From the NCBI GenBank assembly GCA_964016885.1, contig OZ024742.1:355694001-355758000 (forward strand): a stretch of 64,000 bases of DNA, given 5' to 3'. How positions within the stretch are numbered: position 1 is the stretch's first letter; the number at the start of each line of letters is the position of its first letter. Both the position numbers and the translations under genes were made by a program. The DNA is from Eledone cirrhosa (Eukaryota). The notes beneath the pieces were generated by a model. That model made no database searches. It was not told where the DNA came from and was given only the letters and a program-made list of their open reading frames with translations. Of this stretch, positions 558 through 63,313 are shown one piece after another.

Positions 558-637
558 GGGTTCTGATTCAGGCACAAGGCCGACAATTTGGTGGGAGGAG
601 AAAGTTGTGTAAATCAACCCTGTAAGGATGAAAGGCG

Positions 638-1390
638 GCTCCATGCTCTGCCATCCTTCTCCACTTGCGAATCGGCGTTCCCCTGAGGCTCGGCCTCCGG
701 ATCTGCCAGCCACACCAATGTCGCTGCGGTTCCCCCGTGCACTCTTTCGGCTCCACCCGCTTTCCTGTCGCCACAGTGCCGGCCGCATTCCACGCCATAC
801 TGCCCTCAACGAGGTCATTAAGCATGGCTTGGACGCTGCAGGCTTCTCTTCCCCGCTCGAGCCGGTTGGGCTGGATCGAGTGGACGGCAAAAGGCCAGAT
901 GGCGTGACCATCTTCCCGTTCCACGGTGGCAAACGCCTCGTCTGGCATGCCACTTGCGCCGACACTTTCTGCAGCCGCAACCTGGTGCAGTCTGCGACTG
1001 ACCCAGGTTCTTCTGCACGTCGGGCTGAGGAGGGCCAAAATCCTCAAATACAGGTCGCTCTCCGACATGTTTGCGGTCGTTCCCCTGGCAGTGGAAACTT
1101 CTGGTGTACTCGGCCCACCATAGGCGCTGAGCTAGCCAGCCGTAGGTGTGAGCCCCACGAGTTGGAGTGACTTTTCCAGCGCGTGTCCCTTGCCGTCCTC
1201 TGGGGAAACGCCTTCTCCATTCTGTCCGCCGGGGCTGTGGATCGGCCCCATCGCGTACCATTACATTAGTTAAATACCATTATTTCATCTCGTACTGTAA
1301 ACACACATATATATCACTTAAGTTATATTAAATCTATTTGCTCACCATACTGATTAATAGGCAAGGTATAAACTATTGTAAATAAACCTA
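638..1390 (+). mobile_element. 5'-truncated CRE-clade non-LTR retrotransposon (zinc knuckle + restriction-like endonuclease), frameshifted
   Basis: GC-rich island; frames join to LRLGLRICQPHQCRCG..HPLSC..GRIPRH..LNEVI..DGKRPDG..LVWHATCADT..K..KY..PLAVETSG..FQRVSLAV.GNA. Confidence 0.85.
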
Positions 1391-3555: not shown

Positions 3556-5319
3556 TGTGTGTATAAGAGATATGTATAAGAGATATTTATCAGAAAAATG
3601 TATTAGATATCATACCACAACTTAAAGAAAAATCACATCTAAAACTATGGAACGGTACTAATGAGGTTATAGATTGGTTCAATAACATACAATTTAAACA
3701 TAACAACAAATTCACTCAAATGGATATTGAAATTACTACTCCCCTATTACTCCTAGTTTACTTAATAGGGATCTTATCTACGCATCTAAACATACAGATA
3801 TATCTAGTGAAGAAATGCATATCATTTTAACTTCACGGAAAACTTTAATAGAATTCAACAATCATCTCTGGACAAGAGCCGATAGGAAAAATAATTTTGA
3901 TATCACCATGGGATCATCTGACTTAGCGCAAATAACGGATCTTCTGGGCTTATTTATTAATAATACACTGCATAAAAAATGCCAGAGATGACCGGTGGTT
4001 TATATCGTGATGATATGCTGCTTTTAATTGAAAACCACATTAATTGTTAAATTAATAGGAAAAGAAAATCCATAATACAATTCTTTAATAATTATAACCT
4101 TAAGTTAGAAATACAGAATAACTATAAAATCCTTAACTTTTTAGAGGTAACATTAAACCTTAGCACAGCGTTCTACTATCCATTCTACAAAATCAATGAG
4201 AATCTTAATTACGTAAGTTTTAATTCTAATCATCCTAGATCTATTAAGAACACTATCGGAAATATTGTCCAGTAACGAATTTCCCACATCTCTGCTAATA
4301 AAAATATTTTTGAGGAAAAGGCTTAATATTATAATGAAGCTTTAAATAAAGCAGGCTATACGAATAAAATTAAATACCAATGTATTTAATTTTATTCGTA
4401 TAGCCTGCTTTATTTAAAGCTTCATTATAATATTAAGCCTTTTCCTTATTGACAACAATAATAAGGCAAATCACCCTACTATTAATTATAATAAGAATAA
4501 ACAATTTAACTTAAACTCTAAAACAAACAAAATAACTAGAACTGGAAATATTATTTGGTACTCACCCCCATTCTCATTAAGCGTTAAAACACCTTTAGCA
4601 AAGCTATTCTAAAACCACTCAATCTTTAACAGACATACTATAAAACTATCCTACTCTACTACTATGAACATATCACAAAATATAAATAGAATTAATAATA
4701 GAAACTTAAATTTAAACCCTAACCAAAATAACCATAATAGTAATAATAATAATATTTCTAACAATATCCAGTATAATAGTACCGTTCTGAGTAACAACGA
4801 CTCCGTAAAATGTAACTGCAGAATTAGATCAAACAGCCCTTTACAAACTAAGTGTTTAGATAAAAACATAGTTTATAAATGTACAGTTAAAACTAGTGAT
4901 CATATATTCAACTATGTCGGTGCCACTTCTACAGAATTTAAATTTCGCTGGAATAACCACAATTGTTCTTTTAGAAGGTCTGACAAAAAATATTCTACTA
5001 CCCTCTCACATCTTATATGGAATTTAAAAAGCAGGAATATAGACTCTCCATTATCTTGGAAAACGATTTCGAAATCACCTGCTTACCGAAACACGGCCTT
5101 ATCAAGATTCAGTAAATTATGTATTGAAGATTTTTAATTATATAATTAATTGTAAAATCTCTATTAATGTTAGAACAGAAATATTTAGTTGTTGCAAACG
5201 TCGCCAAAATTCTACATTCAGAACTATATGTAAATTATAATATACTTATAATATTCCTATTAATCTCCAAAATGATCTTATCTTCTCTAACATTTTATAT
5301 TTTTAATACTTTAATATAT

Positions 5320-5882
5320 TAATTGCTTCTGCTTTTGGCACAAGGCCAGCAATTAACCAGTGTATTACTGGTACTTTATTTTATCAACCACATATGGATG
5401 AAAGGCAAAGTTTACCTCGGCGGGATTTGAACTCAGAATTACAGGGCCGTAACTCCATGCGTCAAAGCATGGCGTCCGACCCTCATTTCGGAAGAAAGAT
5501 CAGGATGGAGAGAGATGTGCTGTACCCCAGCCATTTTTATGAAATATGGGTGAAAGTGGCGAGAATGGCCTGTGTGAATGGACCTTCACTCTACATCAGA
5601 CTATAGGTGAGGAAGATGAAAGATTAAGGGAGCACCCCCTCTCTGTGCTCCTGAGGAAAAGGGTTGCACACTTTTTTTTTGGGGGGGCGACCCCCCTAGG
5701 CGCCTCCTCCCTATTGAGGATTTGGTTATTAAATTTATTTTGGTTATATTTTATATTTTATTTTTTATAACTTGTTATTGCCTCCTCCTTATTGAGGACG
5801 CCTTTTTATGTAAACTCACCCCCATTGTACCTGTCCCACTTTTTGATGCCCTGGTGGCAAATAAAAAGAAAGATACTGCCAA
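5320..5882 (-). mobile_element. tRNA-derived SINE interrupted by a LINE fragment
   Basis: SINE body 5320-5484; head resumes at 5872 (GATACTGCCAAT); compare intact copy 9718-9912. Confidence 0.8.
5485..5871 (+). mobile_element. 3' end of a Tx1/L1-like LINE
   Basis: FGRKIRMERDVL..HFYEIW.. C-terminal peptide then stop, T-rich UTR, ends CAAATAAAAAGAAA. Confidence 0.6.
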
Positions 5883-7306: not shown

Positions 7307-7309
<3 letters not shown>

Positions 7310-9646
7310 TAAAATAACAGATTAAAGTTTAAGCAAAGAATCGCTGCTTTCACCCTTAACGGGATCTTCTGAAACTAACAAAGTCAATCTGTAAACGCAG
7401 AAGTGGATATTTCAAAAAACATTGCAACCGGAAGACGATACTTTGGTTCGTGGAATCGTTCTCTATGCAAATAAGTAATGGTATAAACAAAACATATACT
7501 TAGCTCCCACATCGAGACGTAAAATATCCACGTATATATCGTAATATCCGTTAGGGTATAACGTGGGGCTGCAATACAGGAAAGTTTTGTGCAATTTATG
7601 TTTACAAGCCGAAATTGCCTCAGATTTTTGTTTAAGATGTGGTCTGTGGCGTAGAGTATTTCCAGGGTCTCAGCGGCGCAGAGGTCACATGGTCTTTTAT
7701 TTCCGTTATACGATCTAGCCCTAGCCAGGATCTGCCAGTGTAACTTATATTGGGTGTGGTTGTCTTTTATACTCCAGATATAAGCTGAAAGTGACGTCAT
7801 ATTCCTTCTTAGAGGGTAACCAAAAGAATGGGTATGCATGTAAAGACGCTGCTTGAATCTATTGGCGGTTAACCCTATGTAGGCCCAACGGGACGTGGGT
7901 GTTACAACCTTACATTTGTAGAAAATGTTACTAGAGAGGCATTTCCCGGATAGGGGGCAATCAACCCGATTCCTACAATTACAGTTAGTACTAACTACAG
8001 GGTTGCACGTGTTCCTACGGCTAGGTAGTTTAGCTAAATTTGAAGCTGAGATGTTATGTGCAAGGTTAGCTGTCGTAGAGTAAGACATTTTAATAGTCTT
8101 TCTATTAAAGATTTTACTATATTTATGTGTAGGGGGAAAATGCTTCGTAATAAGGGAAAGAAAGATCTTAGCTAATGGTGTGGCGACCTCCATATTATAT
8201 GGTGGGTTATACCAACAAATGCGACGGGATCTTTTTTTTCTAGGTCTATTTTAGTACTCCGTATATGCTACCTTATCGACAAATCCACTTCGATCAAGAG
8301 GTTCATTGTAATAAGTGGAATAGTCGTTGAAAATACGCTCGTTGGTGGAAAGAGGGGGAAAGCCTCAACGAAACGTTTCTTACCAGCTTCTTGGTTATGC
8401 TGGCAGGATGGTTGGAATGCTTACTTATGTAATTAAACGTATCATTCGGCTTTCTATACGGGTAATACAACCCATTCGATAAATTGAGGGTAACGTCGAG
8501 GTAATTAATGACCGAGAGATTGGCGTCAACCTGTATAGAGAGGTTGAAGCCTTTAAAGAAGGCTGTGAGTTCTTTTCTGAACCTGTCGCAAGCACGAGGT
8601 CCGCACTTAGTCATGGTCAAAAGACCATCGTCACGGTACAAACCACCACCCGCGTTGGGGAATTCGTCCTTGATAGAGAAAAGAAGGAAAAGGCCGATAA
8701 GATCAGTAACCTCCGCAGAATCACTGGCGCCCATACTCACGTCGAATGGGGTACTATTGTTTTGTTTTATCCTAATAGAGTCGTCGAAATTAATCACCAA
8801 CTTTCGTGCATTGAGGATGACATCAACTTCGAAATTCTTAACTACTGTGAGTGTTTTAGCGAAATTGATAGCTCTAAGGAGAAGTGGTAAAGGGATGGAG
8901 GAGTAGTAATTGTTGATGTCGAATTGGATAAAACGGCAATGTTCCTTGTTACATCAGCCGTTGAACCAATCAATCACCGCGAAAGAATTGTTCCACAGTG
9001 CTAGAGAGGCCAAACTACTAATTTCAGGTATAATTCTATCTAGAATCGTTTTACTAATTCTGCCTAAATCGGACTTCTTAGGGTTAATAAGCCGAATAGA
9101 GGGGTTGTTCGGAAAATTGGATTTGTGACCCTTTAGGGTAAAGTGGGGAGAGATAGGGTCCATGTGACCTCTGCGCCGCTGAGGCCCTGGAAATACTCTA
9201 CGCCACAGACAAACATTTTAAACAAAAAATCTGAGGCAATTTCGGCTTGTAAACATAAATTACACAAAACTTTCCTGTATTACAGCCCCACCTTATACCC
9301 TAACGGATAGTACGATCTATATGTGGATATTTTACGTCTTGATGTGGGAGCTAGGTATATGTTTTGTTTATACCATTACTTATTTGCATAGCGAACGTTT
9401 CCACGAACCAAAGTATCGTCTTCCTGTCTTCCTCCGGTTGCAACGTTTTGTGAAATATCCACTTCTGCGTTTACAGATTGACTTTGTTAGTTTCAGAAGT
9501 TCCCGTTAAGGGTGAAAGCAGCGATTCTTTGCTTAAACTTTAATCTGTTTTTTTAATAAATATTTGCTCTACGGTTCTTATATATTTGATATATATTTAT
9601 CCTTATCGAGCCCTCTTTGGATTTTAGTCTTCAAATTTATTATTGT

Positions 9647-9650
<4 letters not shown>
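7307..9650 (-). mobile_element. Naiad-type PLE: RT-GIY-YIG pseudogene on minus strand (about 7550-9163) joined to an inverted copy of its 3' end (9163-9563) plus tail
   Basis: TLKGHK.NF.NNPSIRLINP.KSDLGRISK, FDVSMGASDSAEVTDL, GLYRDDG, CNCRNRVDCPL, YIGLT..FKQR..H, CDLC; both ends abut (TA)n. Confidence 0.92.
7326..7376 (-). ncRNA. Hammerhead-like motif with CAGAAGA core in Naiad pLTR (also 9489-9539 + and 63241-63291 +)
   Basis: AGTTT CAGAAGA T-CCC-GTTAA-GGG-T GAAA GCA-GCGATTCTT-TGC TT AAACT; all three helices pair. Confidence 0.65.
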
Positions 9651-9691
<41 letters not shown>

Positions 9692-9717: not shown

Positions 9718-9912
9718 ATAATAATTGTTTCTACATTTGGCACAAGTCCAGCAATTACCCAGTGTATTACTGGTACTTTATTTTATCGACCCCGTAAGGA
9801 TGAAAGGCAAAGTTAATCTCGACGGGATTTGAACTCAGACCGTATAGGGACGTAACAATGCTGGAAAGCATGGCGTCCGACCCTCTACCGATACTGCCAA
9901 TTCACCGCCCTT
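9718..9912 (-). mobile_element. Full-length tRNA-derived SINE
   Basis: Head GGCGGTGAATTGGCAGTATCGG (A-box), GAGTTCAAATCCC (B-box), conserved core and (ATT)n tail. Confidence 0.9.
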
Positions 9913-12489: not shown

Positions 12490-15425
12490 TGTATGTATGT
12501 ATGTTCTTCTGGTTTTATAATTTCCCAATTGTTTCCAATAGAGAGAGAGTCGGTTTCTAACATAGACACAAGACTATCTCATTGGAATTTACACAACATC
12601 AACTAGGTAGATATGTATGTATGCATGCATGTGTAGATATGGATGTTATTTTATTTGTGGATGTGGATGTTTTGAGTTGTATGTGTGCATGTGTATATAT
12701 TTTGTATCTGTACATGTGTATATGCAGTTATTAGATGCAACATTTTTTGAATGTTTTACATATTTTTACTGTTCCATTAATGGATTGTACTTGTAATTTT
12801 CTAACTAGTTGTGTTCTTTCTGTTCCTGTGAAGCCTAGCTTCTCAAGATTTGTATTGAGGCAGTTACTAACATATCCCAGTGCCCCAATAATCACAAGCA
12901 TAAATCTGAGGGTGTAATCAGGATGGGGTATCTGCAGATTTCTCATCAGATTTGTATAAATATTCTCCTTTTCACTAACCTTTGATATTATATTGGCATC
13001 TGCTGGGCAGCTAATTTCCACTACTGTGCATGTTTTCTTCTCCCTGTCCCATATCATAATATCTGGTTTGTTATGCCTGCATTTTATTGGGGTTTTTCCT
13101 GGAACATTCCACCAGTACTCTTTCATATTATGTACATGGATGTCTTCCACATTGTTGTAGCTTTTAATGTGTTTATAATCGGGGCTATCTTTTTTACGAA
13201 CTGCATTGTACAGTGTTTGGCCACTACATCATGCCTCATAGGTAGATAGTACCGCGATGACATATTTGGACAGCTGCTGATGACACGGGTGATATCCTCG
13301 ATGTTAGTTCTGCAGAGTCTGCACCTGTTATGACATCAAGGTGTTTTACCTGCATCCCTATCTCTTTTGTGAATCAGGTATTTCCTGCTAATCTCCTGTT
13401 CCTGGATTACAAAAATGTATCCTTCAGAGTGGGAGCCAATATAGCGGTTTTTGTTCAAAGATAGACTACTTTCCTTATCTATATTACTCTCACTCTGGAG
13501 CTTCCTGGCAACATATCAATGCATGATATTTTGCTGATAGGCATGCAGTTTTTCATCCATGGATTCACTGCTATACTGCTAAGCGACATCCCTGGGTGTG
13601 AGTTTTTAATTATCACACAAGGAATATCTCTCAAGGAGTTCCTTCCCAACTCTCATGATCTTATCTGTTTCATGCAGATACACTTGCTCGAGAAAGGGGC
13701 TCCTACGCTTCGAGGTTCGTAGATGTTGTCGGAGAGATATGATGCGGCATTCAAATGTTGTCTGGACTGATGTTAGGCCTCTTCCCCCGTGCTTACGTTT
13801 CAAGTAAAGGCGGTCTATGTCACTGTTGATGTGGAAGTTTGCGGTGTTGTTCAGTATATTTCGAGTTCCAACATCAACTGCTCGGATATCATCTATCGTC
13901 CAATTGAGTATTCCAAACATCGATGTTAGGACAGGCACAGCAAACACATTGTGATTCACTGTTTTGTTTTGCGCAGAGAGTTCCGATGACCAGATCTTTC
14001 TTAATCGGGTGTAGTATACCCTGGTTACGTGTTCTTTATTACAGATACCTTTATAGGATATGTTCTCATCTATCCCCAGGTATATGTAGCAGTCCTCATC
14101 AGATATCGGTGAAACAGTTAGACCATTGATGTCAATGTTGCTAGATTGGGTTGCTGTTTTTCCCCGCTTTACAGTCATGTATGAGCATTTATCTTGGCAA
14201 AAATCTATTCCTATATCCTTTGAGAACGTTGTAACCAGGTCAAGTTGTTTCTTCATCCCATCCATGTTCTTGACATAGAGTTTCAGATCGTCCACAAGTA
14301 AATTGTAGGTTAGGTTCGTATTTCTGTCCTCCTGTGAGCCAATGATGTATCCCTCACATTTCTTGAGCAGAAAGGACAAGGGGTTTAATGACAAGATGAA
14401 TAATATCACAGAGAGACTGTCCCCCCTGATATATACCCCTGCAATATTTTATTTAATCAGTGAAAATAGAGTCCTCCCTCTCTGTCTTTAAACTTAGGAT
14501 AGTAGCCCAAGAAGAAAACTGCCTCTCTATGACTCTGACAATAATATCTGGGACTTTAGCAAGTTGGAGGGCCTCTATCATTCAAGAATGTGGAACAGAA
14601 TCGAAAGCTTTCCTGTAGTCCAGCCAGACTGTAGTCATATTCCTCCTAAGTTGTCGTACCTCCGACCCCAATCCCCTTTCTTTCCAGCTGCTTGTTCATA
14701 TGTGATGATGTTATTATTTTCACAGTGAACTTGGAGGAATAGGTTCAGGCAGGCTGTATATATCTTATACATCAGGTTCTGGCATGCAATGGGTCGGTAG
14801 ATTTTTGGCAAGTGGGTCTTTGTACTTGAGGACCAGTAATGTTTGTGCTAATGTCAACCATTCTGCTATAAGTATATCTCCCTTAAGAACTTGTTGGTAG
14901 AGGTCAGTATGATACCTGCGATAGAATATTAGTTTTTTGTCAAGTAGCCGACAATCATGTCTCTTCCTGGTGTTTTCTTATCTTGGAGTTTTTTTATCAA
15001 AGTCTCAACGGTACCCTCACTTATTTCGTATGTTTTTGTTGTAGTGTAGGAGCAATAGTTCTTTCGGATTTCTCTTAGCCACATTGCATCTTGGTTGAAA
15101 TTCTTCTTTTCACCCTATATTTTTCTCCAAAAGGAATCTATGTCTTCCCGTGATGGGGCCACGGTGACGCTTATTATTTTGCCCCTCATATCTCTATAGA
15201 CTGATGTTTGGTTTCGTTTGAATCTATTATTAAGCACTTTTCTCTCATCTACCTTCTTCAGTTATCGGCGTTTTTCGCTATCGGCTCTCAATTCTTGTTT
15301 GAGGGTGATCAGCTAATATTGGGGTAGTTCTGGTTCTACTGTTACCAAACATCGTCTCTATTTTATTTTTCACTCTTTGTTGGTGAGGAGTGAGATGTTT
15401 TTGGGTTTGTTTGCATGTAAGGAGC
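12490..15425 (-). mobile_element. R4/Dong-like RT-RLE non-LTR retrotransposon, 5'-truncated and frameshifted
   Basis: YRPIACQN, LDYRKAFDSVPH, LSLNPLS, LLVDDLKLY, RLYL.R..GGRGL, CRLC..EDI..CP, RHD, WWN..HNKPDI..VVEISCP..IIGALG; 3' end runs into (CATA)n/(TA)n. Confidence 0.85.
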
Positions 15426-27256: not shown

Positions 27257-28840
27257 AGAAAAACAATAATAAATGCATGGATAATTCATAGTTCGAAATA
27301 ATGTTTATAATAATTCGTAATTTGGATATTTACTATATTTGAATCATGGATATAAGAATGCGGTAGGTATATTTAAAAACAGAAAATATAATTGCATACA
27401 CATTATAAATAAGAGATCAGAAAGGCATTGAAAATTCACAGTTATAAATAAGTTCAGTAAAGATGTAAGGGTTGGATACAAAACTCAGATTTAAAACTTA
27501 AGTAGGAAGATAAGGATAGAGAAATGAGAAAATAACGGTATGGATCAAAGTTAACAGAATAATGTTATATGTATCAATGTTCCGTCATGTTATTGAACAA
27601 GTGTCTTTCATTCGAGCATTATTTCTTCTATAGATAGTTATAAGATAATGCTATATTAAAGGCCATTAATGTTTTTCCCTGTTGATTATATACATCTGAC
27701 AACCAAGTTTTTAATGGTTTACTGTTTCTCACTCTTTTTTTCTCGTTTTGTGGGAGGCTAAGAATGTGGAGGTAGCTTTGTGGAGGGAACTAGAGAATAA
27801 TACAATTTTTTTGTTAATTAGGGTATCGTAGTTTTTAATAATCAACAGGGTTTCCATTGTACAGAGTGCGCAGTTATTTGATATACTAGAGTTGTGGTAA
27901 ACTCCACAGTTCCGAAGTTTTGTCCAAAGAATGGAGTATTTTAAATTCTTCTCTTTTAATGACCATATGAGCTGTGATAAAGACGTGGATGATTTCATCT
28001 TTGAGTTCGAGGATGAGCATTTATGGTTCGCAAATCTGGCTTTAAAAGTGGAAGAAGTGGATCCTATGTAGTTGTAAGTATTATGATCAGTTTTTACGGT
28101 GCATTTATAAACCAAATTACTATCTAAACAATTAATTTGCAAAGGGCAATCAGATTTATTTCTACAGTTACATTTTGGTTTAGTATCATTTATGTTAACT
28201 CTATTATTAATATCATTATGCTGGTTTTGTTTTAGGATGTTAGTGTTTAATTTGGCGATGTTTGGGCCATGTTACTGGTTATAGAATGTGAGAATTTAAT
28301 GGTATGTCTATTAAAAATGGAATGGTATTTATGTTGAGTAGGGAAAGAAGTGTCAAGAGCTTTAAAGAATCATTTTGCGATTGGTGTTTTAACTGCGACA
28401 GGAGCAGGGGTGGGTGGGCAAACCATATGACTGGTTTAGTTCTAGTTCTTATCCTCGATTTATTTGGCGTATGGGTGTTTGAATTATAATTAATAGAGTT
28501 TCTCTTATATATGTTATTATTTTTATTAAGATTAATATTTGGATTATTATTATCTACATATTCTATGTTATTCGTATATCCTGCTCTTTTTAACGCGTTG
28601 TTATAGTATTCAGCATTTTCCTCAAATATATGTTTATTGGCTGATATTTTATTAATTCGTTTTTGCACACTATTTACTATAGCTTTCTTTACATATTTAG
28701 GGTGATTGGAATTGTTACTAACATAGTTTAAGTTTTCATTGGGCTTATGAAAAGGGTAATAGAAGCCAGTGTTTAAGTTAAAGGTAACGTCTAGGAAATT
28801 AACTATTTTGGTACCATTTTCTACTTCTAATTTTATTAAA
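27255..28840 (-). mobile_element. Naiad-type PLE fragment (RT thumb + GIY-YIG + 3' UTR)
   Basis: VNFLDVTFNL..YYPFHKPN, SNHP, CNCRNKSDCPL, VYKC, YIGST..FKARF..H, CALC. Confidence 0.88.
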
Positions 28841-28929
28841 TTGTTGCTGTTCCATTCATGTTTTCTACTTAATTTAATTAAATTAAAAAAATTAAAAATT
28901 AAATTAAAATTAAATTAAATTAAATTAAA

Positions 28930-31745: not shown

Positions 31746-32250
31746 TGCACATACACATACATACACATACATTTTGGTATGTGAAGGGTAAGGCAAAAAG
31801 AATATATGGGGGGGGGGCATGGGAAAAAGGTGAAATATAAGGGGAGATAAGGGAGAAAAAGAATACAAGAGTACAGAACGTGGATTCAGCAAATAAAAAA
31901 AAACCGTAGCAGAAGTAAAGAGCAGGAAAGGAGTTCAAGGCGGTTGATTTATCATAGGAGTGTCAATCCAGTTACAGATCAGATGTGATTTCAGATGAGG
32001 ACAACATCTGAAGATCTCAGTCTTTGAATTTAAGCAAGCAGAAGTGGCTCTCAAGTTTAGCAAAATCCTATATTTTTCTGTGGTACACAAAGAACAATTC
32101 TTTGTGCCCCTTTGATACTCCCTCGAATGGTTTAAGATAGACCAATCGATAGAGTACGGGATGTTACTATCCTTGAATTCCCACACCTTACTTGCGAGGG
32201 CCGTTGATGTTCGTTTATCGGAGTGCTTAAAAGAAGCGACATGTGAGTAA
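31585..32250 (-). mobile_element. Naiad-type PLE 3' fragment (GIY-YIG C-terminus, UTR, pLTR hammerhead 31618-31676)
   Basis: H.ASF..STALASKVWE.K..WSIL..CSLC.TEK..LNSKTEI..CPH; CTGAGGA...GAAA CCACTGG TG. Confidence 0.8.
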
Positions 32251-32259
32251 AACATATAT

Positions 32260-32347
<88 letters not shown>

Positions 32348-32353
<6 letters not shown>

Positions 32354-32633
32354 TTAGAAATTATAAGCTTTCACCGTATTTTTAGACTAAAGAAATTTCT
32401 AGCCTGATAGTGGGGTTTATACCCCTCTGAGAAATGGAAAAGGATTGAGTGTAGCCATGTACGGCAATACTCATCTTTTTCCATTTCTCCGAGGGTTATA
32501 AACCCCACTATCAGGCTAGAAATTTCTTTAGTCTAAAAATGCTGTGAAAGCTTATAATTTCTAATTTCTAATTTCAAACTCGCGCACCGCTTCAAAAACA
32601 TACTTACATGTTTACGTTTATAATTTGCTTGTT
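32348..32633. mobile_element. Fold-back element in (TA)n with one-sided tail
   Basis: Arms 32348-32450 and 32470-32571; tail to 32633. Confidence 0.75.
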
Positions 32634-38101: not shown

Positions 38102-38215
38102 AATCCCGCCTAGGTTAACTCTTCCTTTCATCCTTACGGGGTCGATAAAATAAAGTACCAGTAATACACTGCGGAATTGCTGGCCTTGTGCCACAAGTAG
38201 AAACAATTATCATCA
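38102..38215 (+). mobile_element. 5'-truncated tRNA-derived SINE
   Basis: CCTTTCATCCTTACGGGGTCGATAAAATAAAGTACCAG core and tail. Confidence 0.85.
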
Positions 38216-39314: not shown

Positions 39315-39485
39315 AACCAATTGTTCCTACTTTTGGCACAAGGCCAGCAATTATCCCAGTGTAATACTGACACTTTATTTTATCGACCCCGTAAGGATGA
39401 AAGGCAAAATTAACCTCGGTGGGATTTGAACTCATATCATAAAGGGCCGTAACTCTTTGCTGCAACGAATGGTGTCCGACCAAAT
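39315..39485 (-). mobile_element. tRNA-derived SINE
   Basis: Same family as 378-557. Confidence 0.85.
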
Positions 39486-42663: not shown

Positions 42664-42840
42664 GCAGTGGATTGGCAGTATCTGTAGAGTGTCAGACACC
42701 ATGCTTTGCAGCTTAGAGTTATGTGTTCAATTCCCACCAAAGTTAACTTTCCCTTTCATCCTTTCGGGGTCGATAAAATGAAGCACAAGTAAAGCACTAG
42801 GGCAACTGCTGCCATTGTGCCAAAAGCAGAAGCAATTATG
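42664..42840 (+). mobile_element. Diverged tRNA-derived SINE
   Basis: TTGGCAGTATC head, GTTCAATTCCC, CCTTTCATCCTTTCGGGGTCGATAAAAT. Confidence 0.8.
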
Positions 42841-46671: not shown

Positions 46672-46675
<4 letters not shown>

Positions 46676-48210
46676 ACTGAAATTCACACCAACACCACAA
46701 TACTCCAACCTCAATGCGATAAATGACGATAACTCACACTTCTATAAAAAATTACGTCTCACAGAGGAATTCTTTGACAAGGAGAATTACGACGAATCAA
46801 TTGTACGGAATAAAAGCAGTTACAACCCAACAAAATGTAGAAACAGTTTTCTGGACAAATTTTGTGACCACATAGCTACTTTCCCATACCATGAAATACC
46901 GCACGCTAAACCAAAACCCAACACGAGTCGAAGGGAATGGGAGATTATCCATGAACTAAAAAACAATACGGACATTATAATTAAGGAAGCGGCCAAGGGA
47001 AGTACTGTTGTCATTATGGATGCTGAAAAATGTAAAAATTCTATGCTTTCTCTATTACAAAATACTAATTACTATGAAAGAGTAAAAAAACTACCAGCAA
47101 TCAAAAACAATGACCAGATTAAACACACTGATGTGTCGATACTAGGAAGACTTAACTCAAAAGGAACGCTATTATTTAACAAATTTTGAATACAAAACCA
47201 GCAAACTTTACGGACTTCAGAAGATCCCCAAGTGTAAAATAATCCACCTCAGCCTGCGTGAAGACACAATACCACACAGACCTTTAATTAAGACCAATTG
47301 TAGCGGACGCACAATGTGAAACACACAGGATGAGCAACTTTATAGACATACTACTAAAGCCAATTCTGAAACACATACCAAGCCTTGTAAGAGACGATAT
47401 GGACATCTTAAACCACCTCCCCAAACATGTCAACAACGACACTAGTATTGTGTCTTTCGATGTAGTGAATCTCTACACAACAATCCCACACCAATCCGGA
47501 CTAGAAGCAATAGGATTCTGGCTAGAGAAATATCCCAATGAGATATCTGGCAATAGGCAATGATGAATTACGAAAACAGAAACAAATTCAAGATACGTCC
47601 AATATTCTATCATATATCTCAACACAACCCAAGAAATGCGGAAGCTTACAACACTATTCACAAGAACATCCCACTATTAAAACAAGACCCAAGAGTGAAA
47701 AAAAGCCCTTGAAACACACAAAATAATCAAAAGCAAAAGACAACCGAAATCACTGAAAACATTACTCACCAATGCCAAATTACCTAACACAAACCCACAA
47801 CCAACTGTCAAAAAATGTGGTCGCTCTAATTGTGGAACCTGCACTCACCTCATTGAAGGCAACACGTATAGATTTAAAGCAGGACAAAATGTTGCTGTAA
47901 AAAATCACTTCACTTGCTCATCAAAAAATCTACTTTATGCCATTAAATGTAAAGGATGCAATGAAGATTATATAGGACAAACTAAACTCACACTCAGAAA
48001 CAGTATGACAGTTCATCGCCAACAATTACAAGATCCAACCACAAGACAGATACCACTAAGCGCACATCTAGACATATGCGCAAGTAATAAGACAGCCAAA
48101 TTTCAAGTCTTCCCATTAAACCTTTGCGCTAACCATACAATATAACAAATACGAATAAATAAGGAAGATATGTTTATTCAAAAATATAGACCAGCATTAA
48201 ATATGGTTTA
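46672..48210 (+). pseudogene. Neptune-type PLE with internal deletion (RT N-half fused to Zn linker + GIY-YIG)
   Basis: [40 protein letters not shown], jump at about 47540, CGRSNCGTC, CSSKNLLYAIKC..C..YIGQT. Confidence 0.88.
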
Positions 48211-52796: not shown

Positions 52797-54656
52797 CACA
52801 CGCACACATACATATATCCATACACACATATATATACATAGACATATATATACACACATATATATACATATATATACATATATATATACATATATATACA
52901 TACATATATATATATATATACAATCATACACACTTATTTACATGCGCACATATGTATTTTTATACTCACATACAAACACCCAAACATACATACCTACTTA
53001 CATACACATACATACATCCAGGCTTACAAATACAAATAATTATAGGGCGGGGGGGGGGGGATTAAAATTATTAGTGAGAAATAGTAAATATAGGTTTCAA
53101 GGAACATAGAATATTAATCTGCATTTAGATCATAATATGTGTTTACATAGTAGTTTCAGTATTAGGAAATGTAAGAAAGAAGGCAAAATTATGCATTTTA
53201 ATATAAGTAGACTATTAATTATAGGTTAACTAAATTAAAATAGTTAATATATTGATTTCTAAGGTGTATACTACTTAGGTTTATAATATTTGAAGCGGGA
53301 CTTTGAAGTTAAACAGTAGCAGAGTATTAATTATAGCATAACTAAATTAAAAATATTAACATTATGGTATCAATATTAGGAAATTAATTTAGTAATAGGG
53401 AAAACCAAATCAAGTATTTCATCGGTAGTAGAATATAAATTATAGGTTAACTAAATTAAAAATGATATATTAATTTCTATAGTATATGTTAATTAGGTTT
53501 ATAATAATTAAAGCAGATTTTGTATTTTATCTATAGTAGAATATAATTATAGGTTAACAAAAATTAAAATTAATATTTAATTGTAAAGAATATTTTAATT
53601 AGGTATATATTTAAAAAATTATCTCAGTTTATGATTACATGATATTCTGCAATCCATCTGTATTAGAATTTTAATTTTAAGCTAATTAAATTAAAATTAT
53701 AGGTTAACTAAATTAAAATTAATTCATGAATAAATTTCTAAATTGTACATTAATTAGGTTTATAATATTAAAAAATATTTCTCTGTTATTGATTACACGA
53801 TATTTTGTTATATTTCATCTGTAAAGGAATTTTAATAAAAGGTTAAATAAACTAAAATTAATCTATAAATGAATTTACAAAGTATATATTAATTATGTTA
53901 ATAATATTTAAAAGTTTTTCACAATTTATGATTACACAATATTTTTTTAATCTCATCTGTAGTAGAATTTTAATTAAATTAAATTTATAGGTTAACTACA
54001 TTTAAATAAAATTATATATTAATTTCTAAAATATATATTATTAATTAGGTTTATAATATTTAAATGTTTTTCTCACGATATAATTAATTCCTGTCGCTTA
54101 TTTAATAGGATATCCTTAGATTTCATTATTTCAAATAGTTCTTGGGAACATAATCTACATTCATTTCTATTATTTTGATAAGGGGTGGCTCTTTTGAGCA
54201 CACTCCAGGTCATATCATATTCTATATTCTTATTTCTATAACTATTAATTTTTTCTGCTAGAGATGTTGAATTAGCCAGTGCGGCATTTTTAAAACTATG
54301 TTTGTGGGTATTAAATCTTACCTTAAAATTGGTAGAAGTAGCTCCTGTATATGAGCAAATAGAATCTTTAGTTTTAACTTTACATTAATAAACTATGTTG
54401 TTAACAAGACAATTTCCTTTTAATGGGCAGTTTACTTTGTTTCTACAGTTACAACCTTTCGTTAATTCTGTATTTGAGGAGATATTATGGTTAGTTTGAT
54501 GTATTGGTGGTATACTTATGGTATTTTTACATTTATATGCATTATAGGCACTTATATTTTGTTTTATGTTTTTGGTTGTTGAGTATGAGAATTTAACTGT
54601 TGACCTATTTAAGATTTGATGGTATTTGTGGTTTGGCGGGAAGTTTTTCTCTCGAG

Positions 54657-54704
<48 letters not shown>

Positions 54705-54929
54705 CGGTGTGTATTTTATGTATGAGTATATATTTTACTTGTTTATTATTTTTTATATATTTCTTTTTATTTCTAAATTTATAGATACATTTTATAAATA
54801 GGCAGTTCTCTGACACCCTTAGTAATTACTGACTCCCTTTACCTACTTCTGCATCTAGATGTAAAAATATATGTGGCAGTGTTTATGTGTGCGCCTTAAT
54901 ATCCATATAGTTATAATAATAATATATAC

Positions 54930-55597: not shown

Positions 55598-58500
55598 TTA
55601 GCTAAGCAAAACAAGACCACAAATTTCACAAGGTAGATATTATTGAAAGATTGTCAACACATTTTAGTTTGATATAAGGAGTGTAGCTATTAATAATAAT
55701 AATGTCCGTTTACAATTGTTTCGCAACTCCATATAATATTTCTGGATCAAATGACTATATATATTTATTGATCTGGTCCAGTTGAAATTAATTAACATAA
55801 TTAAAGATAGAGCGGCTCATCGGAACTTCAAAGGAATATAAATTAAAATAAGGAAAGAATGTTACATAATGTAATGTTCCATATATTGGTATTTCACTGT
55901 GGTGTCCTGGGTGTATCAATTGTCTGCCATAATCAAGCAGTATTCTTCTGTCGAGGCTGCATTGTGTGAGATCTGCCTATGAGTAACAAGATGGCGGCCA
56001 ATGGACATATTTACCTTACTAATTAGAGGGTGGTTTAAGGGGATGTAACTCCTTGAGAGATTAGAAATGGTGGGTAGTTTATAGTTAAGTGCTAATTGTT
56101 TTATTTTTTTTATTGAGAAACAGTGTAGGGGAGGTAACTTATAATTATCTAAGTTAGTTATAGCTATTTAACTTATTAGCTACAAGTAACAATGGGGCTA
56201 GATGACTATGTTGGGACAAATATTCTGTTGGCGAAGGAATTGGCCTTTCTATGTTGACAGCTAATAGTTACCTCCGTTCTATCGTTAATCGGTAGGGGTC
56301 GTGATAGTGTTATGTAATATGCTTTGGTAATACAGAGATCACAAGCTTTTCTTCGTCCATTGAACGGTTGGGCCCTAGCTAAGATATCCCATGTTAGTGA
56401 GTGTTCAATGTTGGTTAATTTAAGGTTTTTAATTAGCCTAGCTAGAGATGTCGAACATCTGTTGTTAGGGTCTCGGAAGGAAAAAGAGTGCACGTTATAG
56501 CGCACCTTAAAAGGGTTAGAGGTAGACCCGATATAGGAGCTGGTATTCGAAGCAGTTTTAACCGTGCACCTATAGACCATGTTGGGTGTCAGGCAGTGTC
56601 CATTTAGTGGGCATGCATTAGAGTAACGGCAGTTGCAGTTGCTTCTGCGGTTAGAAAAGTAGGGTAGTTTAACCTAAGTGGTTGGTCAGTGTTAGAAGGA
56701 TTAGATGGGGAGGTGTGCTACTAGAGTAATTATTGGTGTAGTGGCGTGTTGTATTTGATAGGGGTGGTGGTACTGTGGTGTGGGAGTTATACTGTTTAGT
56801 TTATGATGGTTACAGAATGCGATGTGGCTAGCTAGGTTAGGTGTTGTGGAGAATGAGATTTTAATGTTATTTTTATTAAAGAGTTTGTAATATCTATGGT
56901 TGGGGGTTTAGATAGGATAGAGAAGAAGCGTTTAGGGATATTAGTGGCTAAATTAGAATGGGGGGGTTAAGCCAGGTGATATTTCTGGGCATATTCCTTC
57001 TAGGGGTTCTAGTGGAGTTGGTAGGGGCCTTCTTAGGGTTATTATTACCTGGGCATTTGTTATTTGTCATCCCATTGCTCATTCCTATTCTAGGGTTGAT
57101 TTTTAGTTTGGTACTTGGAGTGGGGAGCAGGCCGCTGCCACCATTAAAGTTCCTTGTATAAGTGATGTAACTGCTAAAATTCCGGCGAAACTGGCTATAT
57201 GCTAAGGTATTTTTAGTTCTATTGTCAAGTTTATTATGGGGAATTGCTGCGTTATGGCATTTAGGTATGTAGTAAATGGATTGTTCATAACCAGATTCAG
57301 AAAGCGCCTTATTATAAAATGGTGCATGGTTTATAAATATCTCCTCATTTGCTGATAGAATGGAGATCCTATACGAGATAGATTTGATTACTGCTCTGAT
57401 GACTGCCGGTGGGTGGTTAGAGTGTGGGATAATATATGTAAGTATTTCACCTGGTTTATGGTAACGATAATATAGGTTATTGTTAAGATCCAGGCTGACG
57501 TCTAGGAAGTGTACTACTTCATGGTTCGGCTCGATGTTGATAGAGAGACCGTTATAATTAAAGAATCTATGTAATTGTTTTTTGAGCAAATCAATGCCCC
57601 GATTAGTGCAATTGTGGTCTCCAAATACGGCGCCGTCCCTGTATATTCCGCCTTGCAACGGTTGGATTTCGGCTCTGATGTTATGTAATAGGTAAATTCC
57701 AACTAAATCGGTGATTTGCGCAGAGTCACTTGAGCACTTGGTGATGTCAAAGTTGTCTGTTCTGTCTTTTCTACTCCAGAGTGCTCCGTTGTTTTAAATG
57801 ATGGTCTACCTAGCCATAAGTATGAAGTCAATCTCATTATTGGTTATGTCCGAGTTGGTGCTGGCTAGGGTTAATGTTTTGTTGAGCAGTTCCAGGGTTA
57901 TTGAAACCTTATAGCTGTCACTGTCAAATTGGATGAACCTCATAGATTGCTTGGACCTTAGATCGGAGAAAAATCTAATGACTTGGCCGTTATTGGACCA
58001 CAAAGTGTAGGTGATATCATCCCGTAAACCAGGAATGATCCTATCAAGGATGTTCTTACTGATACGACCCAGGTCGGATGTGGTTGGGCTTATCAGTCTA
58101 ATTGATGGGTTCTATATACAATTTGGCTTATTATCCTTGAGAGAGAATACTTCTTGATTATGGCAGACAATTGATCTACCCAGAACACCATAGTGAAATA
58201 CCAATATATAGAACATTACATTATGTAGCATTCTTTCCTTATTTTAATTTATATTCCTTTGAAGTTCCGATGAGCCGCTCTATCTTTAATTATGTTAATT
58301 ATTTTCAACTAAACCAGATCAATAATGAGATATAGTCATTTGATCCAGAAATATTATATGGAGTAGCAGAAACAATTGTAAACGGACAGTATTATTATTA
58401 ATATTATTATTATTATTTTTTACATTTCTTACATCAAACTAAAATATGTTGACAATCTTTTAATAATGTCTTCCTTGTGAAATATGTGGTCTTGTTTTGC

Positions 58501-61007: not shown

Positions 61008-63313
61008 TATTTCGCTAAGACACTCACAGTGGTTAAGAATTTCGAAGTTCATGTCATCCTCAATGCGCAAAAGTCGGTGATTAATTTCGACGACTCTATT
61101 TGGATTAAAAAATCCAGTAGTACCCCATTCGACGTGAGTATGAGCGCCAGCGATTCTGCGGAGGTTACTGATCTTATCGGCCTTTTCCTTCTTTTCTCTA
61201 TCAAGGACGAATTCCCCAACGTGGCTGGTGGTTTATACCGTGATGATGGTCCTTTGACCATGACTAAGTGCGGCCCACGTGCTTGCGAAAGGTTCAGAAA
61301 AGAACTCATAGCCTTCTTTAAAGGCTTCAACCTCTCTATACAGGTTGAGGCCAACCTCTCGGTCGTTAATTACCTCGATGTTCCCCTCAATTTATCGAAT
61401 GGCTTGTATTACCCATATAGAAAGCCGAATGATACGCTTAATTACAAAAGTAAGCATCCAACCATGCCAGCATAACCAAGAACCTGGTAAGAAACGTTTC
61501 GTTGAGGCTTCCTGTCTATCTACTAACGAGCATATTTTCAACGACCATTCCACATATTACAATGAAGCTCTTTCTCGGAGTGGATTTGTCGATAAGGTAG
61601 CATACACAGAGTACGAGAATAGACCTAGAAGAAATAGATCCCGACCCATTATATGGTATAACCCACCATATAATATGGAGGGGGCCACACCATTAGCTAA
61701 GATCTTTCTTTCCCTTATTACGATGCTTTTTTTCCCCCTACACATAAATATAGTAAAATTGTTAATATAAAAACTATTAAAATGTCTTACTCTACGACTC
61801 CTAACCTTGCACATAACATCACAGCTTCAAATTTAGCTAAACTACCTAGCCGTAGGAACACGTGCAACCCTGTAGTTAGTACTAACTGTAATTTTAGGAA
61901 TCGTGTTGATTGCCCCTATCCGGGAAATGCCTCTCTAGTAACATTGTCTACAAATACAAGGTTGAAACGCCCACGTCCCGTAGGTCCTACATAGGGTTAA
62001 CCGCCAATAGATTCAAGCAGCCTCTTTACATGCATACCCATTATTTTCGTTACCGTATAAGAAGGAATATGACGTCACTTTCAGCTTATATATGCAGTCT
62101 AAAAGACAACCACACCCAATATAAGTTACACTGGGAGATCCTAGCTGGGGCTAGATCGTATAACGGAAATAAAAGAACTGTGACCTCTGCGCCGCTAGGT
62201 CCTTGGAAATACTCTACGCCACAGACCACATCTTAAACAAAAAATCTGATGCAATTTCTGCTTGTAAGCATAAATTGCACAAAACCTTCCTGTATTACAG
62301 CCCCACATTATCCCCTAACGGATAGTACGATATATACGCGGATATTTTACGTCTTGATGTGGTAGCTAAGTATATGTTATGTTTATACCATTACTTATTT
62401 GCATAGGTAAGTATATATTACCTGTATGTTTCGTGAAGGTACGTATACTTTCTCGTACGTATATTTGATTGTATATGTTATGGCGTATGTTTTATATATT
62501 CTGGTACATTTGCTTTTGGTAATGTGTATACGTGAGTTTTGCGTATGTGTGAGTACGCGGGATCGTACGTATGTAGGGTGTGTGTGTACATGTCTACTTC
62601 GTGTTTTGGTTGACGTACGTCTCCGAACATTTGTGTATTTACATGTAGGTATGTGTGTGCGCATGTTATATACGTATTTATTTATTTATATACGTTTATT
62701 TAATTATTTGTATACACGCACACACACACACACATATTTAAATGTGCGTGTATTTGTATACCTATGGCGAGTGTTTTTACGTATGCTTTTGTATGTACGT
62801 ATTTGGATGCCTGTATGTATTTATTTAAATTTAATTACCTCTGTATTTTATTTACTTTATTCTTAACTCTGATGCGGAGAATCATTCGGTTTCATAGTTA
62901 GAATTTTAGTCTACGACTTCAGTTATACCATTTACGTGGTTTTGTCTTTGCGTGCAATTGTTCTCTACGCTCCACATATGACGTATTATATTCGTTTTTT
63001 GCGTTCTTTGCCAGAGAACGTCTCTATGAACCACCTAAGAGAATAATAGTCTACGACTTCTTTTATACAATAAACGTGGTTCTGTCTTTTTCACCGCTCC
63101 AAATAAAGACGTATTATATTCGTTTTTTCCCGTTCTTTGCCAGGGAACGTTTCCACGAACCAAAGTATCGTCTTCCTGTCTACCCCCGGTTGCAACGTTT
63201 TTTGAAATATTCACTACTGCGTTTAAAGATTGACTTTGTTAGTTTCAGAAGATCCCGTTAAGGGTGAAAGCACCGATTCTTTGCTTAAACTTTAATCTGT
63301 TATTTTAATAAAT
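61008..63313 (+). mobile_element. Naiad-type PLE (same family as 7307-9650), 5'-truncated, with intron-containing 3' UTR
   Basis: Near-identical RT/GIY-YIG remnants 61008-62320; pLTR ends at (TA)n. Confidence 0.92.
62407..63143 (+). other. Spliceosomal intron in the PLE 3' UTR
   Basis: AG|GTAAGT donor and TTTTTTCCCGTTCTTTGCCAG acceptor; precisely absent from sister copies at 9391 and 7463. Confidence 0.85.

Follow-up and report, generated by a model that had tools for sequence, protein, structure and literature searches.

Genomic copies of a Hydra-type Penelope-like element of Eledone cirrhosa with and without a pLTR intron: probable retrotransposition of spliced RNA and a candidate role of twin priming

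In the window, i.e., the whole 64,000-nt stretch of Eledone cirrhosa DNA (contig OZ024742.1) that was analysed, two copies of one Penelope-like element (PLE) family differ in a sharply bounded segment of 737 nt, which is present in copy A and missing from both arms of copy B. The locus raises the questions of whether the segment is an intron, how and how often it was lost, and what its presence or absence in the two arms of one insertion tells about the template from which these arms were copied.

Two window copies and the place of the intron

In copy A, positions 62395–62406 read TTATTTGCATAG, directly followed by GTAAGTAT at 62407, and the segment ends with TTCTTTGCCAG at 63143, after which the sequence continues with GGAACGTTTCCACG. 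The boundaries of the 737-nt segment are, hence, TTATTTGCATAG/GTAAGT at 62406/62407 and TTCTTTGCCAG/GGAACG at 63143/63144. Copy B (7307–9652) is a head-to-head pair of a long minus-strand arm and a short plus-strand arm; in both, exon 1 abuts exon 2 without the 737-nt segment, the joint reading TTATTTGCATAG/CGAACGTTTCCACG at 9391/9392 on the plus arm and TTATTTGCATAG/AGAACGATTCCACG at 7463/7462 on the minus arm. The preliminary description of this DNA, which had reported a GT-AG segment at 62407–63143 cleanly absent from both copy B arms, is exact to the base. The A at position +1 of the 7462 arm is a point change, as it is the main exon 2 that follows. Outside the segment, the two copies are 91–92% identical. 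Copy A is flanked by (TA)n tracts and belongs to an older “G” subfamily, and its acceptor region is duplicated in degenerate form (62900–63033 versus 63040–63162, 77%), with the duplicate ending in AG at 63014. The features are as follows.

61009–63313, plus strand: copy A, a 5′-truncated, intron-bearing, tail-less Hydra-type PLE
61009–62318, plus strand: ORF remnant of copy A, a frameshifted RT with C-terminal GIY-YIG; stop codon TAA at 62316–62318
62319–62406, plus strand: pLTR exon 1, 88 nt from the stop codon to the main donor
62362–62363, plus strand: minor upstream donor GT (GTG/GTAGCT), 782-nt form, 10 exact genomic joints
62407–63143, plus strand: 737-nt GT-AG intron, main donor TAG/GTAAGT, acceptor TTCTTTGCCAG
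62439–62440, plus strand: alternative donor (AAG/GTACGT), 705-nt form, 89 exact genomic joints
62900–63033, plus strand: old internal duplication (acceptor region) with AG at 63013–63014, retained within the family
63144–63313, plus strand: pLTR exon 2, ending in AATAAAT, the tail-less 3′ end (presumed proximal RT start)
63241–63291, plus strand: hammerhead-like motif drawn by eye, with A in place of U4 in its core (CAGAAGA ... GAAA)
7307–9160, minus strand: copy B long arm, spliced at 7463/7462, tail absent
9163–9561, plus strand: copy B short inverted arm with ORF end, exon 1, joint 9391/9392 and exon 2
9562–9652, plus strand: copy B tail, 91 nt, on one arm only (presumed distal RT start)

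Judged by the motifs in its translation, the element is a Hydra-clade PLE. A single ORF is found with the RT first and the GIY-YIG endonuclease at the C-terminus, the RT motifs at 8303–8953 (minus strand) lying upstream of ...IFYKCKV...AYIGLTAN at 7384–8250 (minus strand); the ORF remnant of the copy B long arm holds both a CxCX5C linker and the GIY-YIG domain. The linker reads CNCRNRVDC, CDLCAAETLE (CDLC) precedes the conserved E, and LNKKSDAISACKH (window 62230–62285) shows CKH after the conserved N. This CxxC plus CxH pattern fits the Hydra clade, and a single cysteine lies inside the GIY-YIG core, while neither a CCHH motif nor a CX2-5CxxC finger, both of them Naiad features, was found at the endonuclease. 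Longer natural copies (L048, L246) supply the N-terminus, including RLRWRAF and HSDKTGNLY, in which the RWK motif has R for K and DKG is changed to DKT; the ORF begins with MQKQHLNISTKNIP and then runs into the RT, without an N-terminal GIY-YIG endonuclease. A Pfam search of the broken ORF pieces returned nothing significant. The label “Naiad”, under which the family had been introduced, is contradicted by the C-terminal endonuclease together with the Hydra-clade motifs. Insertion is into (TA)n, which the 3′ ends enter in most arms of both classes and in both window copies; the assembly of 3.0 Gb is rich in (TA)n.

Several other repeats are present in the window. At 46674–48145 (minus strand), a GLKF-bearing RT start has a GIY-YIG ORF with CxxC fingers upstream of it and looks like a Naiad fragment, and fragments of further Hydra-like PLE families (CNCR-type linkers, RT pieces) are found at 4613–5137, 27729–28914, 31935–32360, 54385–54825, and 56206–57793. 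An RT ORF followed by an endonuclease ORF at 12731–14448 (minus strand) and a second such endonuclease piece at 613–1170 (plus strand) are what we take to be remnants of non-LTR retrotransposons with a restriction-like endonuclease. Self-BLAST of the window additionally revealed a dispersed repeat of about 180 nt (76–91% identity) that is SINE-like in size.

375–553, 5317–5484, 9719–9896, 38102–38210, 39319–39481 and 42676–42839: copies of the repeat of about 180 nt

The segment carries the features of a U2-type intron, i.e., the TAG/GTAAGT donor, a polypyrimidine tract and a YAG acceptor, and TCGTTTTTTCCCGTTCTTTGCCAG is identical in 76 intron-bearing arms. Divergence between subfamilies affects 43 of 633 columns in the middle of the intron and 2 of 60 at each of its ends, with 26 of 1270 columns in the ORF. 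The position of the intron can be seen from direct tandems (L207, L243, L246, L249), in which exon 2 leads on to the following unit's 5′ UTR and ATG. There, the intron lies upstream of the ORF start (L207, L243, L249), with an acceptor-to-ATG distance of 302 nt in L243, and the 91-nt tail corresponds to the 5′ UTR preceding the ORF of the next tandem unit. The read-through pattern has 67 exact genomic matches; among the first 30, classified from a BLAST map, the upstream pLTR extends to its acceptor in 15, each of them intron-bearing, one is joined by deletion, and 14 break off within exon 2. The segment is a Penelope-type pLTR/5′-UTR intron whose appearance at the 3′ end is due to repetition of the pLTR, and it contains 18 ATGs. 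The earlier placement between the ORF stop and the pLTR needs to be amended: the intron does lie behind the stop, yet it is inside the pLTR and also some 300 nt upstream of the next ORF start.

Exon 2 contains a predicted hammerhead-shaped motif; in 124 of the 138 arms matched it has CAGAAGA, with core position 4 being A instead of U. The near-invariant U4 is replaced by A across the family, and the stems stay intact. An Rfam search found no hammerhead, the only matches being to microsatellite-driven miRNA, and single-strand folding of the hammerhead-like motif (z +1.1) gave no stable monomeric hammerhead. What stands of the “ribozyme-bearing pLTR” is a predicted hammerhead-shaped motif with A at core position 4.

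Genomic joints and the origin of the intron-less copies

Exact junction motifs of 26–27 nt were counted over the whole genome, with each count tallying ends, not insertions. The unspliced acceptor 27-mer has 4820 matches and the main-donor spliced 27-mer has 216, while two further donors are joined to the same acceptor—one at 62439, 32 nt inside the intron (89 exact joints), and one at 62362, 45 nt upstream of the main donor (10 exact joints). As reversed-motif controls yielded 0 genomic matches throughout, the 216 and 4820 matches are not due to chance. Spliced ends make up 6.1% of the exact-match ends (about one in sixteen), and about 94% keep the intron. This count, which the preliminary description had asked for (4820 against 216 + 89 + 10), bears out its view of one PLE family existing with and without a precise GT-AG intron.

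DNA contigs from a single sample (runs X1 and X2), which is possibly the source of the assembly, provided the first instances of the two additional joints, both of the GT..AG kind, and contain the main spliced joint, too. In a scan of 87 GT sites, no other site fits the consensus as well as the main donor and the 62439 donor do (8/9). The GT at 62362 exists only in subfamilies with T at the second base, i.e., the +1 G subfamilies, and the joints made from it have G at +1 in 10 of 10 cases (P about 0.025). The duplicated acceptor at 63014, previously suggested as an alternative splice site, had 0 exact genomic joints with the main donor, the only donor with which it was searched and with a pattern whose right half fits 66 of 81 intron-bearing arms; instead, alternative donors are used. 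On rough scaling, the spliced rate is about a quarter in the subfamily of copy B (G000; window 7307–9652), 3–4% in two others and below 1% in the oldest, so that the spliced share of the copy B subfamily appears to be roughly ten times that of its sisters.

The spliceosome leaves several donors joined to one acceptor. Spliced as well as unspliced RNA of the element has most likely been retrotransposed, with splicing being read here from DNA alone, and the intron-less copies very probably stem from repeated splicing of sense RNA at three alternative donors, followed by reverse transcription. The initial suggestion that both RNA forms transpose gains support from the joints, the isoforms and the intron-bearing sisters described below.

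Alternatively, the intron might have been deleted after insertion, either by gene conversion with a spliced cDNA or by microhomology repair at the AG/G repeat. The ends of the intron share AG(G), a repeat of 2–3 nt, and microhomology deletions are on record for Penelope copies (PMC3846280). Deletion at such a repeat, however, would show no preference for GT, whereas all donors that recur at depth are GT donors. Moreover, independent events would not strike both arms in 26 of 26 pairs (see below), matched rare isoforms in paired arms would be unexpected, and divergence is the same, 1.8%, in spliced and in unspliced C-type arms. The concordance of the arms already largely refutes deletion after insertion, which we consider highly improbable.

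Even less credence, close to none, is given to the segment being an independent mobile insertion (an introner or another transposon) into some copies, for which the direct repeat at its ends could represent a target duplication of 2–3 nt. The best 40 of 4067 candidates were scored, and in 30 of 30 loci the segment follows exon 1, with exon 2 directly after it in 28 of these 30 best loci; a free-standing segment outside the element was found at 0 of the 30 best-ranked loci, beyond which rare free copies are possible. The intron-bearing form is, furthermore, the majority state, and the segment diverges together with the element subfamilies (14 diagnostic columns).

Whether the loss was single or repeated was the subject of a phylogeny already called for in the preliminary description. 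Loci were fetched from the first 100 spliced matches (80 loci) and the first 100 unspliced matches (60 loci, the last 20 of them chosen with a lean to the C-type). Outside the intron, columns with a second allele of at least 12% vary in both classes or only among unspliced arms, so that in this first sample no such variant is restricted to spliced arms. A FastTree phylogeny, built without intron and CpG columns from 48 spliced and 24 unspliced arms (72 in total), is star-like inside subfamilies. The intron state requires 12 parsimony changes on this tree, compared with 4 for the +1 base as a subfamily marker and a mean of 20.4 for shuffled labels; there are, accordingly, 12 state changes, though the state is clustered relative to shuffled labels.

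The clustering stems from one haplotype, including both arms of copy B, which in the first sample comprised 33 spliced and 0 unspliced arms. This raised the reading of an intronless master, i.e., of a one-time intron loss in a small number of source elements, which were then amplified as intronless lineages and gave rise to most intron-less copies; the excess of C at +1 among spliced matches (71/100 versus 30/100 unspliced) points the same way. A targeted search of that haplotype, however, revealed intron-bearing members (six listed). Its sub-lineage with a 2-nt deletion has 59 matches, the first 30 of which are 19 intron-bearing (one with a mutated donor) and 11 spliced. Thus, the haplotype and its sub-lineage have intron-bearing members, even in the majority, and the intronless-master reading is weakened. 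The commonest spliced-only variants of the first sample proved to be shared with intron-bearing copies, spliced and intron-bearing sisters stand side by side in every subfamily tested, and each of the three isoforms recurs in more than one background or follows the presence of its donor. That all 15 upstream pLTRs reaching the junction in tandems keep the intron likewise speaks against intronless lineages, a count that is not significant at a 6% rate. We regard descent of most intron-less copies from such lineages as improbable, and the loss as likely being due to repeated RNA splicing rather than to one intronless lineage. A brief intronless source, none of which was seen, could also give the clustering and the high-rate subfamily.

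Head-to-head arms, the one-sided tail and the template

Among the 140 loci, 48 contiguous head-to-head pairs are present, comprising 26 spliced/spliced, 19 unspliced/unspliced, 0 mixed and 3 unclassifiable pairs. This number does not include five neighbours that lie more than 900 nt of other DNA apart. Two of the five (L131, L169) combine a spliced with an unspliced arm and were set aside for having more than 1000 nt of other DNA in between. A further 88 loci yielded three distinct 705/705 pairs and one distinct 782/782 pair; also new are three spliced and six unspliced pairs, in addition to a single mixed insertion. If each arm drew its template independently from the RNA pool, the partner would be spliced in 6–27% of cases. 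Rare variants in 24 spliced pairs are shared in 27 instances and unshared in 266, as compared with 8 and 1909 in random cross-locus pairs.

In the mixed insertion (L044), the unspliced and the spliced arm carry different subfamily marks; since its arms differ in both isoform and subfamily, two templates can be used. Positions 510–1871 of this locus form a chimera of a tailed unspliced arm, an inverted ORF piece and a spliced arm of another subfamily, with a short motif common to both switch points. Two templates were also considered for three unspliced pairs with C on one arm and G on the other at +1, a reading that was rejected on the grounds that the C arms carry G-type intron marks (1, 2, 8). 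A C at +1 of exon 2 (window 63144) on single arms otherwise marked as G subfamilies was observed repeatedly, in L008, L213, L245, L250, and L267.

The two classes share the same two end sites in (TA)n, one following AATAAAT and the other 91 nt beyond it. Both ends could be typed in 83 of 102 head-to-head blocks; in 79 of these 83 the tail is on exactly one arm (P 2e-19). Either arm can be the longer one, and either can bear the tail. In 17 of the 79 insertions, the tailed arm consists of the tail only, and in 7 of 79 no more than 4 nt separate its end point from where the other arm starts, compared with 0.8 expected.

Short direct repeats with units of about 350 nt are found in L352, L362, L363, L370, L373, and L374 (at about 1400–1900 in each), consisting of the 5′ UTR and roughly the first 70 nt of the ORF joined to the start of exon 2. 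These units reach about 201–208 nt past exon 2, an AC-rich stretch, and may reflect the 3′ end of the template RNA, a third RT start or a retrozyme-like derivative.

Taken as a whole, the combination of a pLTR intron, splicing of sense RNA and twin priming is a probable explanation of these data. A tandem source locus would be transcribed through pLTR-ORF-pLTR into the next unit, yielding sense RNA that extends past the second pLTR. Once the upstream intron copy is spliced out, the RNA would be free of some 18 upstream ATGs for translation, and the downstream copy would usually (about 94%) be still unspliced at the time of reverse transcription. The endonuclease would nick the two strands of a (TA)n target, and a pair of RT molecules would prime on the same RNA, the proximal one where exon 2 ends and the distal one 91 nt further 3′; the distal RT would then either stop at the proximal start or displace the proximal cDNA, and the two truncated cDNAs would be joined head to head. 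As known from other animals, nonsense-mediated decay follows a 50–55 nt rule, and with the main donor 88 nt behind the stop, it is a possible cause of the low spliced rate.

For the spliced copies, a sense template is implied because an antisense template cannot yield sense GT-AG splicing. That the unspliced majority of about 94% is copied from sense RNA as well is suggested by its ends, which are identical to those of the spliced copies. As for the arms, we lean slightly towards twin priming on one RNA molecule. The more detailed proposal has to be put forward tentatively, with doubt somewhat outweighing confidence: a dimeric RT-endonuclease would prime twice on one sense RNA, at one fixed site per target strand and 91 nt apart, and displace the first cDNA, thereby building the inverted pLTR; the isoforms would be barcodes proving a single template, intron retention would mean the copying of unspliced sense RNA, and spliced copies would be dead ends in every subfamily.

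The main rival holds that the inverted arm is a fold-back copy of the first cDNA or, for the intron-bearing majority, arises by self-priming on antisense RNA, with the endonuclease trimming one tail. The concordance of the arms and their shared rare variants would be just as likely with a second arm that had the first cDNA as its template; antisense-template self-priming has been published as a hypothesis (PMC3846280), and endonuclease resolution is proposed as an origin of the one-sided tail in the relevant passages of PMC8557442. Self-priming on antisense RNA, however, cannot give copies spliced at sense GT-AG sites, and the spliced copies share ends and arm layout with the unspliced ones. 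Fold-back explains arm concordance, but not easily the tail-only arms, seven of which stop at the exact start of the other arm, a twin-priming signature; that either arm may be longer and either may bear the tail also speaks against it. We consider the rival unlikely, without dismissing it.

Sense GT-AG-spliced copies with the same ends and layout as the others point to a sense RNA template, and intron retention is then better described by a rate (about 94%) than by a rule. Given that isoforms mark single RNA molecules, they provide a test of how the two arms are made. The family bears on the sense-versus-antisense template question and on two matters named as open for PLEs, intron retention and the formation of inverted ends. 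It provides a genome-scale count of splicing in competition with retrotransposition, and it constitutes a ready in vitro system with two marked RNAs and two start sites.

Comparison with known systems

In LINE-1 twin priming, which underlies 5′ inversions, two primers on one RNA give rise to an inverted junction, with the outer cDNA being able to end at the starting point of the inner one; spliced element RNA, too, can be retrotransposed. The arms of L1 insertions do not overlap and the inner site is variable, whereas in the present family the inner site is fixed and the arms usually duplicate the 3′ end, which would require strand displacement.

The Hydra clade has been defined by Craig et al. 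on the basis of motifs, and Naiads are characterised by an N-terminal endonuclease (relevant passages of PMC8557442). Like Hydra-clade families (e.g., Hydra-1_Obim, Hydra-2_Amil) as described there, the element has the RT followed by a C-terminal GIY-YIG, RW(K/R) and DKT, (TA)n targets, a CxCX5C linker, CxxC plus CxH around E and N without CCHH, and a length of about 2.5 kb without the intron. The N-terminus and RT blocks resemble those of Hydra-1_Obim in a comparison by eye against the supplement text (PMC8557442). It differs from these families in its thousands of copies, its tail of 91 nt versus 30–40 nt and its hammerhead core A4, as well as in having an intron, of which there is no mention for Hydra families in the main-text passages and supplement metadata of PMC8557442. 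Naiads share (TA)n targets, the inverted/tandem structure and the one-sided tail with the element, but have an N-terminal endonuclease with CCHH and, according to the passages on this group, no canonical hammerheads (PMC8557442).

Introns in pLTRs, intron retention and the one-sided tail are already known from PLEs. “The majority” of PLEs in Drosophila virilis and bdelloids are stated to contain introns (PMC2377424, passages on introns), the one-sided tail has been described qualitatively, and in the same passages intron retention is said to be of unknown significance (both PMC8557442). An antisense template has been proposed for PLEs, with an unspliced sense template left open (PMC3846280). 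The literature searched contained no count of spliced genomic PLE copies, noting that Arkhipova et al. 2003 (Nat Genet) may report intron-less copies; nor did it contain alternative PLE isoforms fixed as insertions, an intron in a Hydra family, isoforms tying both arms to one template, or PLE twin priming.

In vitro, the PLE protein of Anolis extends both target strands, and its dimerisation is predicted (PMC11167929, in the sections considered). According to these sections, this system (PAc Poseidon of Anolis carolinensis) resembles the present family in two RT starts that bracket the tail, in AT-rich targets, in the extension of both target strands and in RNA that runs into the next unit. 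It differs in that its start sites lack a strand bias in vitro, while here each site is used once per insertion (79/83); an intron is not analysed in those sections of the study.

The closest parallels to the intron itself are Penelope of D. virilis, with a 75-nt 5′-UTR intron in the pLTR (PMC2377424), and Chlamys-3_cRei, with a 398/751-nt 5′-UTR intron (PMC8557442). As far as the passages on these two elements go, both share with the present family a GT-AG pLTR intron that lies upstream of the tandem ORF and of the hammerhead, a hammerhead-like motif in the present case; spliced and unspliced RNA is described for Penelope, and alternative isoforms for Chlamys-3. Unlike in Penelope and Chlamys-3, as described there, the intron spliced in the present family is the downstream copy, 88 nt behind the stop, and while their spliced forms are shown as RNA in these passages, those of E. 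cirrhosa are represented by hundreds of genomic insertions in three isoforms.
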